NCBI GenBank assembly: GCA_016301865.1
Contig: JAEDOP010000001.1
Location: forward strand, 1-45,009
Length of the DNA stretch: 45,009 nucleotides
Direction: 5' to 3'
Origin: Alphaproteobacteria bacterium
GTDB lineage: Bacteria > Pseudomonadota > Alphaproteobacteria > Rs-D84
The notes under the pieces are model-generated. The model was not told the DNA's origin. It searched no databases and saw only the letters and a program-made list of their open reading frames with translations. Both the position numbers and the translations under genes were made by a program. This document shows positions 14,675 through 45,009 of this stretch, one piece after another; position 1 is the stretch's first letter; each line of letters opens with the position of its first letter.

Positions 14675-14748
14675 TGCGTCGTAGTGTAACGGTAACACCC
14701 AAGTTTTTGGCACTTGTATTCCCCGTTCGAATCGGGGCGGCGCAACCA
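14675..14748 (+). tRNA. tRNA-Gln (anticodon TTG), CCA encoded
   Basis: Hand-folded cloverleaf. Acceptor TGCGTCG/CGGCGCA (one G-U pair), D arm GTGT/ACAC, anticodon stem CAAGT/ACTTG with loop TT-TTG-GC, T arm CCCCG-TTCGAAT-CGGGG, discriminator A, then CCA. Confidence 0.8.
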
Positions 14749-14756
14749 AAAAAAAT

Positions 14757-14838
14757 ACCCGTGTGGCGAAATGGTAGCCGCGCAACACTCAAAATATTGT
14801 ACCGTAATGGTGTGCCGGTTCGAATCCGGCCACGGGTA
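14757..14838 (+). tRNA. tRNA-Leu (anticodon CAA), long variable arm
   Basis: Acceptor ACCCGTG/CACGGGT, D region TGGCGAAATGGTAGCCGCG (Leu-type), anticodon loop CT-CAA-AA, variable arm ACC-GTAAT-GGT, T arm GCCGG-TTCGAAT-CCGGC. Confidence 0.8.
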
Positions 14839-14848
14839 CGAAAACGGA

Positions 14849-16807: not shown

Positions 16808-16914
16808 TGACTTTGAATGCGCGGATAGGATGAATTTGCAACCCATCCGAAAAGGTACGCCGATTGCCCGGCCGCGCTTTTCAATCAATCGGTAACATAT
16901 TAAATCGGCAAGAA

Positions 16915-17484
16915 ATGCAAAGCGAAATTTGGAAAGATGTACCCGGTTATTCCGGGTTGTATCAAGTTAGCAATTTGGGACGTGTTAAAAGTCTTGCGCG
17001 GGTTGATGCGAACAAACATTTTGTGCGTGAAAGAATCTTGAAACAATCAAATCGCGGGAATGGTTATAACGTTGTTGTTCTGTATTCAAAAGGACACAAA
17101 ATGTTTGCCGTTCATCGGTTGGTAGCGTTGGCGTTCATTCCGAATCCGGACGGGTTGCCGCAAGTCAACCATAAAAACGAAAACAAAACAGATAACCGGG
17201 TTGAAAATTTGGAATGGTGTACGGCAAGACAAAACGCGAATTATGGAACAAACAGGGCAAGAATTTCGAAAACCCGTAAATGTTCCAAAAGATGCAAAGA
17301 AGATGTTGAAAGGCGTAAACGTCCAATTGTTCAGTATGATTTATCCGGTAATTTTATACGGCGTTATGATAGTATTTCGGCCGCAAAAATTGAAAACGGA
17401 ATCCCTGTAAACAATGGTTCGTTAAATGCGTGTTTGAAAGGAAAACAAAAAACTGCTTATAATTACGTGTGGAAATATGATTGA
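16915..17484 (+). CDS. HNH homing endonuclease with NUMOD4-like N-terminus (copy 1)
   Basis: EIWKDVPGYSGLYQVSNLGRVKS (NUMOD4-like), VHRLVALAF..QVNHKNENKTDNRVENLEWCT (HNH), and a C-terminal ISAAKIE..AYNYVWKY DNA-binding motif. The gene is an AT-rich island. Confidence 0.75.
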   Translation: MQSEIWKDVPGYSGLYQVSNLGRVKSLARVDANKHFVRERILKQSNRGNGYNVVVLYSKGHKMFAVHRLVALAFIPNPDGLPQVNHKNENKTDNRVENLEWCTARQNANYGTNRARISKTRKCSKRCKEDVERRKRPIVQYDLSGNFIRRYDSISAAKIENGIPVNNGSLNACLKGKQKTAYNYVWKYD

Positions 17485-23565: not shown

Positions 23566-24105
23566 ATGGAACAGACCGAACCAAAAAAGAAAGGACGCAA
23601 ACCACAATGGACTGATACCAAAGTGGAAATTATGTGCAAGGCCATTGCAGACGGTAAGAGTTACAAAGACGCTTTTACGGCCGCCCGTGTGTCCAAAGCG
23701 ACGTTTTATAAGCATCTTGCCGAAGATTCGGACTTTCAAGACCGAGTAAAAAAGGCCGAACAGACATACCAAGAATGGTACGATTCCCAATTGGTAGTTG
23801 ACTGTAAACGTTCATTGCTTGAACTGATACGCGGTTACGAATGGGATGAAACCACAACGGAAACGGCAACGGGGAAAGACGGCAAAGAAGCGGTTACGAA
23901 AAAAAAGGTTGTCCACAAAAAGGCTGCGCCGAATCCAACGGCGATTATCTTTGCATTGTGCAACCGTGCGCCGGGCGAATGGTCCAATAAGCACATCCAA
24001 GAATTAAGCGGAAAGATTGAAACGGAAACCAAACCGGGCATTACGTTGGCCAATGTTCCAGATAACCTGTTGGCGCAAGTTATTGACGCAATAAATGGGA
24101 AATAA
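23566..24105 (+). CDS. terS: Terminase small subunit
   Basis: N-terminal HTH (GRKPQWTDTKVEIMCKAIADGKSYKDAFTAARVSKATFYKHLAED) and a position upstream of terL. TAacTTTG lies at 23542-23549. Confidence 0.6.
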   Translation: MEQTEPKKKGRKPQWTDTKVEIMCKAIADGKSYKDAFTAARVSKATFYKHLAEDSDFQDRVKKAEQTYQEWYDSQLVVDCKRSLLELIRGYEWDETTTETATGKDGKEAVTKKKVVHKKAAPNPTAIIFALCNRAPGEWSNKHIQELSGKIETETKPGITLANVPDNLLAQVIDAINGK

Positions 24106-24143: not shown

Positions 24144-24482
24144 ATGGCAAAATATATACATCGCAATATTTGGAATTGGGGCCGAAAAGATACCATCGTA
24201 ATTGCGGACGGTCGCGCATTGTGTCAATTGTCCGTTGAGGATGAAAACCCGGCCGTTGCGTATTTGTCCGATGTTATCGTGTTGGAATCGGCCCGTGGTT
24301 GTGGCCTTGGTAATGACTTGTTGGAAGCGGCAAAGGAACACGCCCGGGAAATGGGCGCAAAAATGTTGTGTTTGTGGGCGGACCCGGAACAATGGGTGGT
24401 TGAGTGGTACAAACGGCACGGATTCAAACAACAATGCGTGTATGATGATGGGATGGTTGGTTTAACGTTTGATTTGGAATAA
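24144..24482 (+). CDS. GNAT-family N-acetyltransferase (112 aa)
   Basis: VIVLESARGCGLGNDLLEAAKEHAREMGAKML...YKRHGF contains the acetyl-CoA binding motif A (R/Q-x-x-G-x-G/A). Confidence 0.7.
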   Translation: MAKYIHRNIWNWGRKDTIVIADGRALCQLSVEDENPAVAYLSDVIVLESARGCGLGNDLLEAAKEHAREMGAKMLCLWADPEQWVVEWYKRHGFKQQCVYDDGMVGLTFDLE

Positions 24483-26998
24483 TGGACGTTGATACGATGC
24501 AAATAACCCGGATGTTGACCGAACACCCGGAAATGTTCTTGCAAGAGGGCGCACGGCGAAACCTGTTGTGGTACGCGCAATATATGGACCCCAACTTTCA
24601 GCCAACGCCGTTCCATCGGGCGTATTATGCCGTATTGGACCGGTTCGCCAAACGCCAAATCAAAAAACTAATCATACAGGCCCCGCCGCAACACGGAAAA
24701 GCATTGCGGGAAGATACGCCGGTATTGACGACAAGCGGATGGAAAAGACACGCGGATTTGCGGCCCGGAGATTATGTATTTGGCGAAGATGGGAAACCGC
24801 GCCGTGTTAAATGGAATAGCGGCGTTTATAAATGCGAATCGCAACGTGTGTGTTTCGCCGATGGCTTTTCGTTGATTGCGGCCCGTCAACACGAATGGGT
24901 CGTGTATGCGGACCACGACGACCATAAAGGCCGTATCCGGGAAATCGTCGAAACTCAAAATTTGTTTTCAAGACGGAACCGGCGCAATCCATATATCCCG
25001 GCCAATGCAATTATTGATATGCCGAAGCGTGATTTGCCTATTTCGCCGTATCTGTTGGGTCTTTGGTTGGGCGACGGGAATAGTTTTGACAAATGGATAA
25101 GTTGCGGGGCGGAAGATATTGAACACTTGCGGCCATTTGCGGTTCAAATCAAACAGGACAAAACGGCATATCGTGTACATTTGTGCGGATTGGAAACGAA
25201 AGATTTGCGCCGCATTAGTGTATTGTTCAACAAACATATCCCCGTCGAATATTTGTTGGCAGATGTTGAAAGTAGGCGCGAATTATTACGTGGATTGATG
25301 GATACGGATGGATGCGTCAATACACGGGGAACGTGCGAATTTTGCCAGAAAGACGGCCAATTAGCAAACGATGTTTACGTGTTGTTGCGGACATTGGGTT
25401 ATAAGCCAACGCGACACACATACATTGCGCGTCTATATGGAAAAGATTGTGGCAATAAGGTTCGAATAACGTTTAATCCGGACCGGGACGATAAAATCTT
25501 TGACATTCAGCGAAAACAACAAAGATTGGAAAATAAATCGTGTTTGGACCGGGACGATAAAAAACGATTCTTTATTGAATCTGTTAACGAATACGGAAAT
25601 GCGGACGTTAATTGTATTGAGGTTGACGGCGGAATATATCTTGCGGGATATGAACTTGTACCAACGCATAATTCCCAAGGGTCAAGCCGGTTTCTTCCAT
25701 CCGATATGTTGGGCCATTTCCCGGATTTGAAGATATGTATTTGTTCGTATGCGGCGACCATTGCAAAGGATTTCAACCGGGACGTTCAACGTTTGATTGA
25801 TTCGGATAAATACCGGGCCATATTCCCAGATACGCAATTGAACGGGTCGAACGTTGTTACAGTTGCCAATAATTACTTGCGAAATTCGGACGTTTTCGAA
25901 ATCGTGAATCATACCGGTTCGTTGCGTGTCGTTGGTCGTGGTGGTTCGCTTACATCCAAGACCGTTGACGTAATGATTTACGATGATTTGTATAAGGATT
26001 CGACGGAAGCGAATAGCCCGATAATCCGGACGGCCGCGTGGGATTGGTTCACGAAAGTTGCACAAACCCGTTTGCACAATGATTCGCAACAATTGGTTGT
26101 GTTTACCCGATGGAACCCCGACGACATTATTGGCAAAATCATTGAATCGGAAAAGGTTATTTTTGTAGAAAAATGGTCCGATTTAGACAACATCCCGTCC
26201 GGGGCGTGGGTATTGGTCAACTTTGAAGCAATCAAGACCGGCGAACCGACGGAAATTGACAACAGGGAACCCGGGCAACCGTTATGGCCGCAACGTCATT
26301 CGTTGGAACGCCTGTTGCAACAAAAACAATTGGACCCGTTGGGTTTCCAATGCCTGTACCAAGGTAATCCGGGCGATGCAACCGCATATCTTTACCAACC
26401 GTTCAAAACGTGGGTCGAAAAATCGGAATGGGGCCAATATATCCGTTCGGGTTGTTACGTTGATGTTGCAGACGAGGGCGATGATTTCTTATTTGCCGCA
26501 ACTTATGACATTTACCGTTCCGAAAATCAAATTTGGAATGAAGCCAAACACCGGATGGAACCGTTGTTGTTTGTGCTGATAACGGACATTGAATTTACCG
26601 ACGAGCCAACCGACGTTACGACCGTGACAGTACCCCGGATGATTAACAACAATGGCGTACAAAAAGCGTGGATTGAATCGAACAACGGCGGGTCCCAATT
26701 CGAAAAGACCGTGAAAAAAAAGGTTCGGGCGTTGACGGTCCCGTTTTACCAAAGCGAAAACAAGGAATCCCGGATTGTAACGAATGCGCCGTTTGTAAAT
26801 CAATATATCATTATGCCGTTCGGGTGGGAAACCCGGTACAAGAAATTCCACGACCATATCGTTGGGTTCTTACGCAAGTTCGATGCGAACACCCACGACG
26901 ACGACGCGGACGGATTGACCGGAATATACGAAAAGGAAATTGCCGACGGAAATACGAAACCATATAACGCCGCATCACGTGGCGTTCGCGTCCATTAA
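24482..26998 (+). CDS. terL: Terminase large subunit, interrupted by an intein (838-aa precursor, about 514 aa after splicing)
   Basis: QAPPQHGK|[intein]|SQGSS restores a GKS Walker A. Walker B is VDVMIYDDLYKD. A C-terminal nuclease-type region follows. Confidence 0.85.
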   Translation: MDVDTMQITRMLTEHPEMFLQEGARRNLLWYAQYMDPNFQPTPFHRAYYAVLDRFAKRQIKKLIIQAPPQHGKALREDTPVLTTSGWKRHADLRPGDYVFGEDGKPRRVKWNSGVYKCESQRVCFADGFSLIAARQHEWVVYADHDDHKGRIREIVETQNLFSRRNRRNPYIPANAIIDMPKRDLPISPYLLGLWLGDGNSFDKWISCGAEDIEHLRPFAVQIKQDKTAYRVHLCGLETKDLRRISVLFNKHIPVEYLLADVESRRELLRGLMDTDGCVNTRGTCEFCQKDGQLANDVYVLLRTLGYKPTRHTYIARLYGKDCGNKVRITFNPDRDDKIFDIQRKQQRLENKSCLDRDDKKRFFIESVNEYGNADVNCIEVDGGIYLAGYELVPTHNSQGSSRFLPSDMLGHFPDLKICICSYAATIAKDFNRDVQRLIDSDKYRAIFPDTQLNGSNVVTVANNYLRNSDVFEIVNHTGSLRVVGRGGSLTSKTVDVMIYDDLYKDSTEANSPIIRTAAWDWFTKVAQTRLHNDSQQLVVFTRWNPDDIIGKIIESEKVIFVEKWSDLDNIPSGAWVLVNFEAIKTGEPTEIDNREPGQPLWPQRHSLERLLQQKQLDPLGFQCLYQGNPGDATAYLYQPFKTWVEKSEWGQYIRSGCYVDVADEGDDFLFAATYDIYRSENQIWNEAKHRMEPLLFVLITDIEFTDEPTDVTTVTVPRMINNNGVQKAWIESNNGGSQFEKTVKKKVRALTVPFYQSENKESRIVTNAPFVNQYIIMPFGWETRYKKFHDHIVGFLRKFDANTHDDDADGLTGIYEKEIADGNTKPYNAASRGVRVH
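24701..25672 (+). mobile_element. Intein (324 aa) with a LAGLIDADG homing endonuclease domain, inserted in the terL P-loop
   Basis: Starts ALREDTPVLT (Ala1) and ends VPTHN followed by +1 Ser. Block B is GFSLIAARQHEW. Block F is VNCIEVDGG. LAGLIDADG motifs are LLGLWLGDGN and LLRGLMDTDGC. The endonuclease core is AT-richer than the exteins. Confidence 0.8.
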
Positions 26999-27814: not shown

Positions 27815-28008
27815 TGAACGCCAAGACAACCACGGTAACGTTGGTTGCGAACGGCGTTACCCGGGAATTTGAATTTTCCCACGCGGAACGATTGTTAAGG
27901 ATGCCGAATAACGGCGGTTGGAAATTGCCAGAAAAAACGAAATTCGAATTTAGCGTGAACTATGGGTTACGACGTTGCCAAGATAAGGAAAAAAATAGCG
28001 GAAAATAA
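27814..28008 (+). CDS. Hypothetical protein (64 aa)
   Basis: The ATG overlaps the upstream stop (TAATG). Confidence 0.45.
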   Translation: MNAKTTTVTLVANGVTREFEFSHAERLLRMPNNGGWKLPEKTKFEFSVNYGLRRCQDKEKNSGK

Positions 28009-29704
28009 ACGTTCCGCCGTTTTGAGCCGTGCGCGATTGCATCAAATGCGTATCAAATTCCACACGGTCAAACGGGTTACGTCTTTCAATTCGCCGTACA
28101 TTTCTATTCCATTAACGCAATTTCTTGCAATGGTGGAAAATATCTTGCCGCACGATAAGTTTGTATTGTTCAAAGCACTTTTCCGTTATCCCATCAAAAC
28201 GAATGAGATAACGGAAATATGCTTTGCCAAGTTAAGCCGCATATTTGACGGCCGCAACCCCGCGTTCAATTATCAATTCGCAAATTCCGCCCAACGCGAT
28301 GATTGGGAACAATACAGGTTAAACAAGTTGAATGAACCCGAAGTATGGTCAACGAAAGGATGGGAATTTTTCAAATCCGAAATTAATTCCGTTTTAATCG
28401 TTGACGTGGCCCGGGAACAGACAACCGAATTGCCGGAACCGTATTTTTATTGGCTACCAATTGACGATGTAATTACATACAAAGCGAACCCGACAACGGG
28501 CCAAATGGATTATATCGTTTTCCGTCGCAAAGACGAAATCATTGTTTTGGACGATGAAACGTACCGGGTATGGGACGATGAAAAGCATACCGGCCAATTG
28601 GTCGGTTTGCCGAAAATTGAAGCCCCGCACGATTTGGGTTATTGCCCGGCCCGTTTCTTTTGGACCGAACCCATTTCGTTGGACGACCCGGACGTAAAGG
28701 CATCCCCGTTGTCCGCCGAATTGGAAAGTTTGGATTGGTTCGAATTTTTCCACATTTCCAAACGCCAATTGGACCTTATGGGTGCATATCCGATTTTGTC
28801 CGGGTACGAACAAAGTTGCGATTTCACGAACGCGGAAAATGGCGATTATTGCGACGGTGGGTTTTTGCGTGACAAACAAGGCCGTTACCGTCTTGATATG
28901 GCCGGATTACTGTTGCGTTGTCCGAAATGCGGGAACAAACGCATCGTCGGGGCCGGGTCCTTTGTGGAAATCCCTGTACCAAATGAAGCGGAAAACCAAC
29001 CAGATTTGCGCAACCCAGTACAGATATTGAACGTTGACCGCAACGCCCTTGATTACAATGTTGAGGAACAAAAGCGGTTGCGGGAAGAAATCATTACGGC
29101 CGTTGTCGGTCAAGAAGAAATCGTAACGAACCGCGACGCGTACAACGAACAACAGGTACAAGCGAATTTCGAAAACGTGACAACCGTTTTGAACCGGGTA
29201 AAAAAGGGTTTCGAAGCCGCCCAACAATGGGTTGACGAGACCGTTTGCCGGTTACGTTATGGACGGTATTTCATATCGGCAAAAATCAATTACGGCACGG
29301 AATTTTATTTGTATTCCCCGGATGAATTGCGGGCGCGTTATAAGGCCGCGAAGGAATCCGGCGCGTCCGAATCCGAATTGGATATGATGCAAAACCAAAT
29401 TCTGGAAACGGAATACAGGAACGACCCGGTACAATTACGCCGTATGAAGATATTGGCCGAACTTGAACCGTTCCGCCATCTTTCGCGGGTTGAGGTTAAC
29501 GAACTGTTTTCCAAAAATCTTGTATCAGAAACGGATTTGCGTATTAAATTGAACTTTCCTAATTTTGTACGCAGATTCGAACGCGAAAACACAAACATTT
29601 TGGATTTCGGTTCGGAAATTGACTACCAACGCAAGATTGAAACTATTATGGCCGAATTGCGGCGTTATGCCGATGAACAGAAACCGCAACCGGCGAATGT
29701 ATAA
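27962..29704 (+). CDS. Portal protein candidate (580 aa)
   Basis: Size and position (first large gene after terL, upstream of the scaffold and capsid genes). The start is uncertain; an alternative ATG lies at 28046. Contains a Cys4 cluster C..C...CPKC. Confidence 0.5.
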   Translation: MGYDVAKIRKKIAENKRSAVLSRARLHQMRIKFHTVKRVTSFNSPYISIPLTQFLAMVENILPHDKFVLFKALFRYPIKTNEITEICFAKLSRIFDGRNPAFNYQFANSAQRDDWEQYRLNKLNEPEVWSTKGWEFFKSEINSVLIVDVAREQTTELPEPYFYWLPIDDVITYKANPTTGQMDYIVFRRKDEIIVLDDETYRVWDDEKHTGQLVGLPKIEAPHDLGYCPARFFWTEPISLDDPDVKASPLSAELESLDWFEFFHISKRQLDLMGAYPILSGYEQSCDFTNAENGDYCDGGFLRDKQGRYRLDMAGLLLRCPKCGNKRIVGAGSFVEIPVPNEAENQPDLRNPVQILNVDRNALDYNVEEQKRLREEIITAVVGQEEIVTNRDAYNEQQVQANFENVTTVLNRVKKGFEAAQQWVDETVCRLRYGRYFISAKINYGTEFYLYSPDELRARYKAAKESGASESELDMMQNQILETEYRNDPVQLRRMKILAELEPFRHLSRVEVNELFSKNLVSETDLRIKLNFPNFVRRFERENTNILDFGSEIDYQRKIETIMAELRRYADEQKPQPANV

Positions 29705-43620: not shown

Positions 43621-45009
43621 ATGGCAAATTATGAGACATTAAAGACGGCGATACAAAGTGTTGTTAAAACAAATGGCAACAACGAAATAACGGGCGCATT
43701 GCTTCAGCAAGCGTTGTTGGCAATGATAAATTCTTTGGGGTCCGGTTATCAGCTTGTCGGTGTGGCAACGCCGACAACAAATCCGGGCACTCCAGATGCC
43801 AAGGTATTTTATATAGCCAACGGCAAAGGAAGTTATGTCAACTTTAGTGGTCTTGAGGTAACGGAGAATGACGGATTAGTAATCTTCACATACGATAGCA
43901 AGTGGGTTAAGAATAATGTTGCTATTCCTACCAAGGAAGGAGGAACCGTAGAGGTATTGGCAGAGACAATGATAAATACTACATATTCGCAATTACGGAA
44001 TATGAGAAACAGTGGTACCCTTGTTCCCGGTATGCAATATCGTATTACGGACTATGCTTGCACCACAACCCAAGAAAATACTCAATCAGCAGGTCATCCA
44101 TTTGACATCATAGTAACTGCCGATAGCAAGAACACATTGAACGAGGTAGCAAGAGCCATTCAGCACGAAGGGGACACCTATTTCGCTGATTGTGACCTTT
44201 CCGCTTGGAAGATATGGTATTGCCTTGACAATGATGCTACAAAATTCGCTTGGGCAGATAGTACCAATGGCAAAGGTGTCATATATAGGATGATTGATGA
44301 ATGGAACAATGATGTGCCGTATGATTTCAAAAACATTCAGTTCGCAAGGGATTTGGCGGTTATCTCTCATAATAGCGCATTGACCGGGACTATCTATTGC
44401 TATACCTTTAGCATGTTCCTTGATGGCTTCAGTATGAATGCTACTGCAAGCGATGAAAGTGTTATAATAAAGCAACTTATTGCGAGTGTGGGATACGCAT
44501 TTTTTGGAAATAATAAAATAGAATCATATAGTTTCGGCGTATGTAGGCTTAATGATATAATATTCTTCACGGATAGTAAGAGTAAAATAGTCGGACATTT
44601 CTCCAACATCTTCGGAAGAAATTGCTCCTCCAATACCTTCGGTAATATTTGCGGTTCCAACACCTTCGGGGATAATTGCAGCGACAACATCTTCGGTAAT
44701 AGTTGCAACAACAACACCTTCGGTAATGGTTGCGGTTCCAACACCTTCGGGAATCAATACGAGAGAAACATCTTCGGAAAAAATTGCTCCTCCAACACCT
44801 TCGGTAATATTTGCGGTTCCAACACCTTCGGGGATAATTGCAGCGACAACATCTTCGGTAATAGTTGCAACAACAACACCTTCGGTAATGGTTGCGGTTC
44901 CAACACCTTCGGGAATAATTGCAGCGACAACATCTTCGGTAATAATTGCAGCAACAACACCTTCGGGGATAATTGCAGCGACAACATCTTCGGTAATAGT
45001 TGCAAAAAC
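43621..45009 (+). CDS. Tail fibre / receptor-binding protein, N-terminal part (3'-partial, runs off the window)
   Basis: Hand translation is open for 463 codons: MANYETLKTAIQSVVKTNGNNEITGALLQQALLAMINSLG... then a low-GC central domain, then 9-aa repeats from about 44602. It is absent from the ORF track because no stop codon is reached. Confidence 0.75.
   Translation, partial: MANYETLKTAIQSVVKTNGNNEITGALLQQALLAMINSLGSGYQLVGVATPTTNPGTPDAKVFYIANGKGSYVNFSGLEVTENDGLVIFTYDSKWVKNNVAIPTKEGGTVEVLAETMINTTYSQLRNMRNSGTLVPGMQYRITDYACTTTQENTQSAGHPFDIIVTADSKNTLNEVARAIQHEGDTYFADCDLSAWKIWYCLDNDATKFAWADSTNGKGVIYRMIDEWNNDVPYDFKNIQFARDLAVISHNSALTGTIYCYTFSMFLDGFSMNATASDESVIIKQLIASVGYAFFGNNKIESYSFGVCRLNDIIFFTDSKSKIVGHFSNIFGRNCSSNTFGNICGSNTFGDNCSDNIFGNSCNNNTFGNGCGSNTFGNQYERNIFGKNCSSNTFGNICGSNTFGDNCSDNIFGNSCNNNTFGNGCGSNTFGNNCSDNIFGNNCSNNTFGDNCSDNIFGNSCKN
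44602..45009 (+). repeat. 27-nt (9-aa) coding tandem repeats organised in a 162-nt higher-order repeat
   Basis: About 15 units N-x-F-G-x-x-C-x-x. The 162-nt super-units start at 44605 and 44767, and again at window position 68. Confidence 0.85.

Follow-up and report, generated by a model that had tools for sequence, protein, structure and literature searches.

A class 3-type intein with an embedded LAGLIDADG endonuclease in the terminase P-loop of an uncultured ~45 kb phage

Introduction

The stretch of DNA analysed here, which we refer to as the window, is the 45,009 nucleotides of contig JAEDOP010000001.1 (positions 1 to 45,009; assembly GCA_016301865.1, filed as Alphaproteobacteria bacterium), and it contains a phage terminase large subunit gene (terL) whose Walker A motif is split by 324 codons. 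What is the interrupting segment, and how might a working terminase be made from such a gene? An initial annotation of the sequence proposed an intein with a LAGLIDADG endonuclease, and our analysis leads to the same answer: nucleotides 24701–25672 very probably represent a mobile class 3 intein, composed of a Hint domain and a double-motif LAGLIDADG homing endonuclease (HEN), at the Lys73^Ser junction of TerL (a caret marks the insertion junction here and below).

Class 3 inteins are defined by the lack of an N-terminal nucleophile, by a Trp/Cys/Thr (WCT) triplet in which the Trp is at block B position 12, the Cys at block F position 4 and the Thr at block G position 5, and by Ser or Thr at the +1 position; their first branched intermediate is formed by the block F Cys (PMC2807308). 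The proteins that host WCT inteins are helicase-like, phage terminase large subunits among them, and most of the insertions are in ATPase P-loops (Tori et al. 2010, PMC2807308). In actinophages 293 TerL inteins have been counted, many of them class 3 (2025 survey, 10.1101/2025.01.02.630785), and gut crAss-like phages of the Delta group also have TerL inteins (Yutin et al. 2021, PMC7886860).

Results

Interruption of the terminase Walker A motif

In the translation, the insert (ALREDTPV...ELVPTHN) lies in frame between Lys73 and the Ser of APPQHGK^S, and the junctions can be read directly in the DNA. On the left, Lys73 is encoded by aaa (24698–24700) and Ala1 of the insert by gca (24701–24703); on the right, Thr322-His323-Asn324 are encoded by acg cat aat (25664–25672) and Ser+1 by tcc (25673–25675). 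The catalytic residues Trp66 and Cys305 are encoded by tgg (24896–24898) and tgt (25613–25615). The length and coordinates of the insert and the positions of A1, W66, C305, T322, N324 and Ser+1 in the initial annotation are all exact. Removal of the insert in silico gives a 514-aa protein (...LIIQAPPQHGK-SQGSSRFL...) in which APPQHGKS matches the Walker A pattern [AG]x4GK[ST], and the proposal that excision restores a GKS P-loop in a protein of about 514 aa is borne out by natural homologues of exactly 514 aa that share the junction. The GC content at third codon positions is lower in the intein (0.448) than in the extein (0.559).

The host protein is a large terminase. The whole open reading frame (ORF) matches the terminase large subunit family phrog_38 of PHROG (E 6.7e-75) and TIGR01630 (E 1.4e-11), and the spliced sequence scores above the Pfam Terminase_6N cut-off (27 bits vs 22), whereas the unspliced precursor falls below it. 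The TerLs of the nearest cultured relatives (Elizabethkingia phage TCUEAP2, Alistipes phage AS73P1, Bacteroides phage BKO1-3 and Parabacteroides phage PDS1, with genomes of ~43–45 kb) lack an intein and are ~66% identical; a megablast search with terL against 50,697 phage records gave no match, and there is thus no close cultured relative at the DNA level. An AlphaFold2 (AF2) model of an empty allele 92% identical to the spliced protein (P0001) was built from a shallow alignment (≥77% identity) and has a predicted local distance difference test (pLDDT) score of 66.6, so that it is suited to questions of local topology and fold class only. It has a strand (62–66), a loop (67–72) and a helix (73–88) in the topology of a P-loop, which places the K73^S74 junction at the P-loop/helix boundary, and Foldseek matches it best to large terminases (PhiV-1, Sf6 gp2, D6E, T7, T4 gp17 and P74-26). 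Because a phmmer search of the PDB with the spliced TerL found nothing at E≤1, the assignment of Walker A rests on the sequence motif, the Terminase_6N, PHROG and TIGR01630 matches, the AF2 topology and the Foldseek terminases. With GK and S split by the insert, the 838-aa precursor cannot form a P-loop and cannot work unspliced, and it is sound to infer that packaging depends on protein splicing.

Hint fold and endonuclease domain

The best sequence matches to the insert in the PDB (phmmer) are the class 3 mini-inteins Msm DnaB-i1 (6bs8, E 6e-12) and MchDnaB-1 (6rix/6riy). In the N-terminal half, ALREDTPVLTTSGW...QHEW pairs with ALALDTPLPTPSGW...QHQW of 6bs8, and in the C-terminal half VNCIEVDGGIYLAGYELVPTHN of the window pairs with VRCVEVDNPEHLYLAGPGMVPTHN. 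An AF2 model of the intein, made from a 54-sequence alignment, has a pLDDT of 96.0 and a predicted TM-score (pTM) of 0.93, and a Foldseek search of the PDB with this model places PI-SceI first (E 4e-19, TMq 0.76–0.79), followed by the TliVMA, PhoVMA and PI-PfuI inteins, with Hedgehog Hint domains lower. The best mini-inteins in the same search are the class 3 structures 6bs8 and 6rix, with a target-normalised TM-score (TMt) of ~0.8. The intein assignment of the initial annotation is upheld by this Hint fold (AF2 and Foldseek) together with blocks A, B, F and G, Asn324, Ser+1 and a precise empty allele. A group I or group II intron was also considered and is ruled out by the continuous ORF; an Rfam scan of the window found no intron, only two tRNAs.

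The two LAGLIDADG motifs that had been recognised, LLGLWLGDGN (with D125) and LLRGLMDTDGC (with D203), lie in a region with a significant match to Pfam LAGLIDADG_3 (E 8.5e-9, 36 bits vs a cut-off of 22.5). The match to PI-SceI and PI-PfuI and the presence of an acidic residue in both motifs identify the pseudo-dimer fold of these endonucleases (alpha-beta-beta-alpha-beta-beta-alpha). By tblastn, the intein is ~35% identical to mycobacteriophage TerL inteins over 100% of its length (E 3e-44), and full-length relatives are found in the TerLs of Mycobacterium, Gordonia, Rhodobacter, Salmonella, Vibrio, Lactococcus and Klebsiella phages. Metagenomic relatives typically sit as GK^A...THN^S or THN^T in diverse P-loops.

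Class 3 signature and predicted splicing route

The class 3 prototype, the MP-Be intein of Bethlehem gp11, was recovered, and its residues P1, S62, W67, C320, T339, N341 and T+1 agree with the published numbering. In a MAFFT alignment the window intein is collinear over its full length, endonuclease included, with MP-Be and the Cjw1 and Baka TerL inteins; W66, C305, T322 and N324 share columns with MP-Be W67, C320, T339 and N341, and the first three also align with Msm DnaB-i1 W67, C118 and T137. The proposed signature of Ala1 plus W-C-T thus falls in the same columns as the Bethlehem triplet. One detail needs adjustment, in that Cys305 does occupy block F position 4 as stated, but the block must then begin one residue earlier, at Asp302 (DVNC...). 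Ala1 is present in 17 of 17 alleles with this type of intein (type A, see below; 68–94% identical), in which H64, W66, D125, D203, C305, T322, H323 and N324 are also invariant, and H64, W66, C305, T322 and H323-N324^S are invariant in all 22 intein alleles compared. A class 2 (KlbA-like) intein is excluded by the WCT triplet and by Ser at the +1 position.

We infer the splicing mechanism from class membership. Cys305 would attack the peptide bond between Lys73 and Ala1, which the His64/Trp66 motif of block B would activate, to form a thioester branched intermediate, and the N-extein would then pass to the hydroxyl of Ser+1. Cyclisation of Asn324 would free the intein, and an O-to-N shift would rebuild ...QHGK-SQGS... 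to give the active 514-aa TerL.

Three states of the insertion site

A search with the spliced sequence yielded 3,570 homologues, and occupancy of the site was scored in the best 120 cluster representatives, which are 79–92% identical. Uninterrupted QHGKSQGSSR or a close variant is present in 98 of the 120 TerL clusters, most of exactly 514 aa, and the spliced window protein is collinear with them across the site. Sixteen clusters contain a 324-aa Ala1 intein as in the window (type A), and another five (P0007, P0063, P0064, P0076 and P0103, the last at L009 357–2870) contain a 321–323-aa intein beginning with Leu at the identical K^S junction (type B). The type B inteins are only 30–38% identical to type A, and also have the H..W motif, the block F Cys, T-H-N and a LAGLIDADG/Hom_end domain. 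Intein-bearing alleles are found on many near-complete ~44 kb contigs from independent samples.

An empty site is also seen at the DNA level in a syntenic 44,003-nt contig (L003), as ...CAACACGGTAAA^TCACAGGGTTCAAGC..., or ...CCGCCACAACACGGTAAA^TCACAGGGTTCAAGCCGA... when written as a cleavage substrate; its counterpart in the window is ...CAACACGGAAAA^intein^TCCCAAGGGTCAAGC..., and the exteins of the two are 86% identical in nucleotide sequence. These precise empty alleles, the L003 site among them, rule out a collinear non-intein domain at this position. One informative set of alleles comprises P0060 (type A), P0064 (type B) and P0046 (empty), whose exteins are 98–99% identical as protein and 95–96% as DNA. 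With all three occupancy states on a near-identical backbone, the two inteins appear to be rivals that compete for one homing site.

A different arrangement is seen in P0041 (834 aa), where the P-loop site is empty and a 320-aa intein (Cys1...VSN^C) sits in the nuclease-domain motif HDDG^CDGLTG. It matches Pfam Hint_2 (E 1.2e-7) and has no recognisable endonuclease domain. The window TerL is continuous at this second site (THDDDADGLTG).

Selection, mobility and homing

Compared codon by codon with three other type A alleles, the window shows strong purifying selection on the intein, comparable to that on the C-extein. Against P0006, the ratio of nonsynonymous to synonymous substitution rates (dN/dS) is 0.094 for the intein as a whole, 0.168 for the N-terminal Hint segment, 0.074 for the HEN, 0.060 for the C-terminal Hint segment and 0.110 for the C-extein; for the HEN it is 0.04–0.13 across the type A comparisons. 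Intein and extein identities among type A alleles are uncoupled (Spearman 0.04, p 0.64). One example is the pair P0009 and P0020, with exteins 95% identical and inteins 77%; a second is P0020 and P0060, with exteins 83% identical and inteins 94%. The nucleotide differences between P0060, P0064 and P0046 bunch within ~35 nt of the junction on its upstream side, which fits either co-conversion or selection at the target site.

The canonical QHGK^S[QS]GSSR flank is present in all 21 alleles with a P-loop intein versus 78 of the 99 without one (Fisher p 0.011), an association that is suggestive, the test ignoring the relatedness of the alleles. The other 21 alleles without a P-loop intein have altered residues at the site (QTGK, QSGK, QFGK, HGQS, SELSSR or SEGSSR), and include P0046 (with the QTGK flank), P0071, P0111, P0118, P0014 and P0062; in P0014 (HGQS) even the Walker A Lys is missing. 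Such alleles may be target variants that resist the endonuclease.

The endonuclease, free or embedded, is predicted to cut an intein-less terL at ...CAACACGG(A/T)AAA^TC(A/C)CA(A/G)GG... during co-infection, and repair of the cut allele would copy the intein in. Homing of this kind would account for the patchy occurrence of the intein across the phage population. The endonucleases of the Baka and Bethlehem TerL inteins cut intein-less alleles, and TerL inteins splice (Kelley et al. 2016, PMC5050341).

Genome context

The neighbours of terL fit a packaging module, and all long ORFs are on the + strand (Table 1 gives the features within terL). A terminase small subunit (TerS)-like ORF is at 23566–24105, and a 580-aa ORF at 27962–29704, without a Pfam match, has a counterpart of equal length and position in L003 and in contig L006. 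Between the TerS-like ORF and terL there is a 112-aa GNAT acetyltransferase ORF (24144–24482, +; Acetyltransf_7, E 3e-10), the stop codon of which overlaps the terL start; L003 and L006 have an ORF of 55–56 aa in its place. A free-standing HNH/NUMOD4/NUMOD1 homing endonuclease ORF (16864–17484, +) is a second gene of the mobile-element type in this genome, and is also present in L003 and L006. Adjacent tRNA-Gln(TTG) and tRNA-Leu(CAA) genes are at 14675–14839 (+).

Both ends of the window have a 27-nt tandem array (12–338 and 44604–45004; consensus ACAACACCTTCGGTAATAATTGCGGTT) with 12 and 15 copies respectively, and super-periods of 81 and 162 nt. The 25 nt that open the window are found again at 44700 and the 25 nt that close it at 151, and with the array shared between the ends the window looks like a circular or permuted genome of ~44.7 kb cut within the array. 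Candidate roles for the array are coding (9-aa repeats; ORF 27–557 begins inside it) or as an iteron region.

Table 1. Features of the interrupted terL gene in the window
Feature	Coordinates	Strand	Remarks
terL precursor ORF	24482..26998	+	838 aa
TerL N-extein, aa 1–73	24482..24700	+	Ends with Walker A A-P-P-Q-H-G-K, nt 24680–24700
Probable intein, 324 aa, class 3 type, with embedded LAGLIDADG homing endonuclease	24701..25672	+	Precursor aa 74–397
Block A ALREDTPVLTTSGW	24701..24742	+	Residue 1 is Ala, without an N-terminal nucleophile
Block B GFSLIAARQHEW	24863..24898	+	His64 is position 10; Trp66 is position 12 (W of WCT)
LAGLIDADG homing-endonuclease domain	25013..25570 (approximate limits)	+	Pfam LAGLIDADG_3
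LAGLIDADG motif 1 LLGLWLGDGN	25052..25081	+	Intein residues 118–127, Asp125
LAGLIDADG motif 2 LLRGLMDTDGC	25283..25315	+	Intein residues 195–205, Asp203
Block F DVNCIEVDGGIYLAG	25604..25648	+	Cys305 at position 4, predicted branch-forming nucleophile
Block G ELVPTHN plus Ser+1	25652..25675	+	Thr322 (T of WCT), His323, Asn324
TerL C-extein: remaining ATPase domain and nuclease domain	25673..26998	+	Begins at the Walker A Ser

Discussion

Alternative explanations

Several points weigh against the interpretation of this segment as a mobile class 3 intein. The Pfam Hint models fall under their cut-offs (Hint_2 at 18 bits vs 28.4), and block B position 7 is Ala, as opposed to Asp, Ser or Thr in characterised class 3 inteins; splicing of MP-Be does not need the residue at this position (PMC2807308). 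The extein matches Terminase_6N rather than the Terminase_1 of characterised P-loop class 3 inteins, and we therefore regard the window intein as a homologue at an analogous P-loop site and not as an allele of the mycobacteriophage TerL1-a intein. The association with the canonical flank has the limit given above, and splicing, the branched intermediate on Cys305 and DNA cleavage are all predictions.

The alternative with most to recommend it is that the intein splices and its endonuclease is no longer active, with the element passed on only by vertical inheritance or ordinary phage recombination. Synonymous sites between type A alleles are near saturation (proportion of synonymous differences 0.45–0.79), so the association is old, and mosaic recombination is common, as seen in the different genes upstream of terL in the window and in L003 and L006. 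However, the HEN is under purifying selection equal in strength to that on TerL, neither catalytic Asp varies between alleles, and the identities of intein and extein vary independently. Occupancy also differs between near-identical exteins, the allele differences cluster next to the junction, and the homologous HEN of the Baka TerL intein is active (PMC5050341). We consider an inactive endonuclease unlikely.

Less probable still, and by a good deal, is that the intein splices by another route, either with a class 2-like attack by Ser+1 or in a class 1-like manner with Cys305 in a structural or assisting role. Ala1 does occur in class 2 (KlbA) inteins, but these lack the WCT triplet and use Cys at +1 (PMC2807308), whereas here the +1 residue is Ser, the invariant W66, C305 and T322 align with residues that are essential in MP-Be, and the nearest solved relatives are class 3 inteins. 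It is scarcely credible that the insert is an intein in decay or already inactive, or an insertion domain that has been domesticated, in a terL copy that is non-functional or works unspliced. In favour of this, an exact-sequence look-up found no identical 838-aa protein on record elsewhere; against it, the frame is intact, the catalytic residues are kept across diverged alleles with low dN/dS, intein alleles recur on near-complete contigs of independent origin, and a P-loop split at GK^S cannot function. A mobile class 3 intein with its HEN thus remains our preferred explanation.

Comparison with known inteins

The closest parallels are the mycobacteriophage TerL1-a (Cjw1/Kostya gp8) and TerL1-b (Baka gp6) inteins, which occupy the same Walker A Lys^Ser/Thr site (PMC5050341). 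The junctions are analogous (Cjw1 NGK^ALDVETP...TPTHN^T; window QHGK^A...HN^S), and the mycobacteriophage P-loop inteins likewise have Ala1, W-C-T and a double-motif LAGLIDADG HEN, with identity at the ~35% level over the full length. They differ in having Thr at +1 rather than Ser, and, unlike the actinophage TerL inteins, the window intein is in an uncultured Bacteroidota-type siphophage. The MP-Be 'DnaB' intein, whose host Bethlehem gp11 is actually a terminase (PMC2807308), is collinear and has an equal HEN architecture, but has Pro1 and Thr+1 and is at site TerL1-c, which is not in the P-loop.

Msm DnaB-i1 (6BS8, PMC6195587) and the window intein both start with AL..DTP, have HxW and C[IV]EVD and end in VPTHN; the Msm intein, however, has no endonuclease and is in DnaB. 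The PI-SceI/VMA-type inteins, which are the top Foldseek matches (~E 1e-19), have the same two-domain fold of Hint plus LAGLIDADG, but are class 1 (Cys1) and only ~16% identical to the window intein, and PI-SceI has an additional DNA-recognition region. TerL inteins of Delta-group crAss-like phages also interrupt terL in gut Bacteroidota phages (PMC7886860), but belong to another phage order and are described as Hint-Hop inteins and not as class 3, and it is by this description that we set them apart.

A literature search found no paper describing the window intein. Reports of class 3 inteins in TerL P-loops date from 2010 and 2016 (PMC2807308, PMC5050341), and the finding is therefore less novel than first proposed; what is new is the lineage, an uncultured ~45 kb phage, and the Terminase_6N-type extein.

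Redox control of splicing

The initial annotation also raised the idea that Cys305 could make packaging redox-sensitive, which is speculation by analogy to Msm DnaB-i1, where the catalytic Cys118 forms a disulfide bond with Cys48 under oxidative stress (PMC6195587). The Cys48-Cys118 pair is not conserved position for position, as the Cys48 column (C-[FY]-x-V-x-F in Msm, Cjw1 and Baka) is Ser47 in the window intein. Two residues upstream of the Cys48 equivalent, in the same predicted strand (43–52), is Cys45 (24833–24835), which is outside the canonical splicing blocks, is invariant in 17 of 17 type A inteins and is Thr in type B; Cys51 is not conserved in type A. We regard it as quite improbable that TerL splicing is conditional on a reversible disulfide between the catalytic Cys305 and the type-specific Cys45. 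If it were so, exposure to oxygen or oxidative stress in the gut would keep the terminase from maturing and bring DNA packaging to a pause, in a phage whose hosts are obligate anaerobes, and types A and B would be redox-sensitive and redox-insensitive packaging alleles.

Implications

As a class 3 homing intein in a terminase P-loop, the window intein is a clean and well-populated but ordinary case, and leaves the current understanding of inteins unchanged. In annotation, terL should be read as a precursor, an intein and a mature enzyme of 514 aa, and it would be wrong to take the intein for a novel terminase domain. This class 3 intein is compact, is modelled with confidence and has a Ser+1 junction, and is a candidate tool for protein engineering. 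Class 3 inteins of the TerL P-loop have so far been characterised mainly in actinobacteriophages, and the window intein adds an abundant family of ~44–45 kb gut phages whose closest cultured relatives infect Bacteroides, Parabacteroides, Alistipes and Elizabethkingia. For this family the public metagenomes represent a natural homing population, with empty, type A and type B alleles on near-identical terL genes and candidate resistant variants among them.

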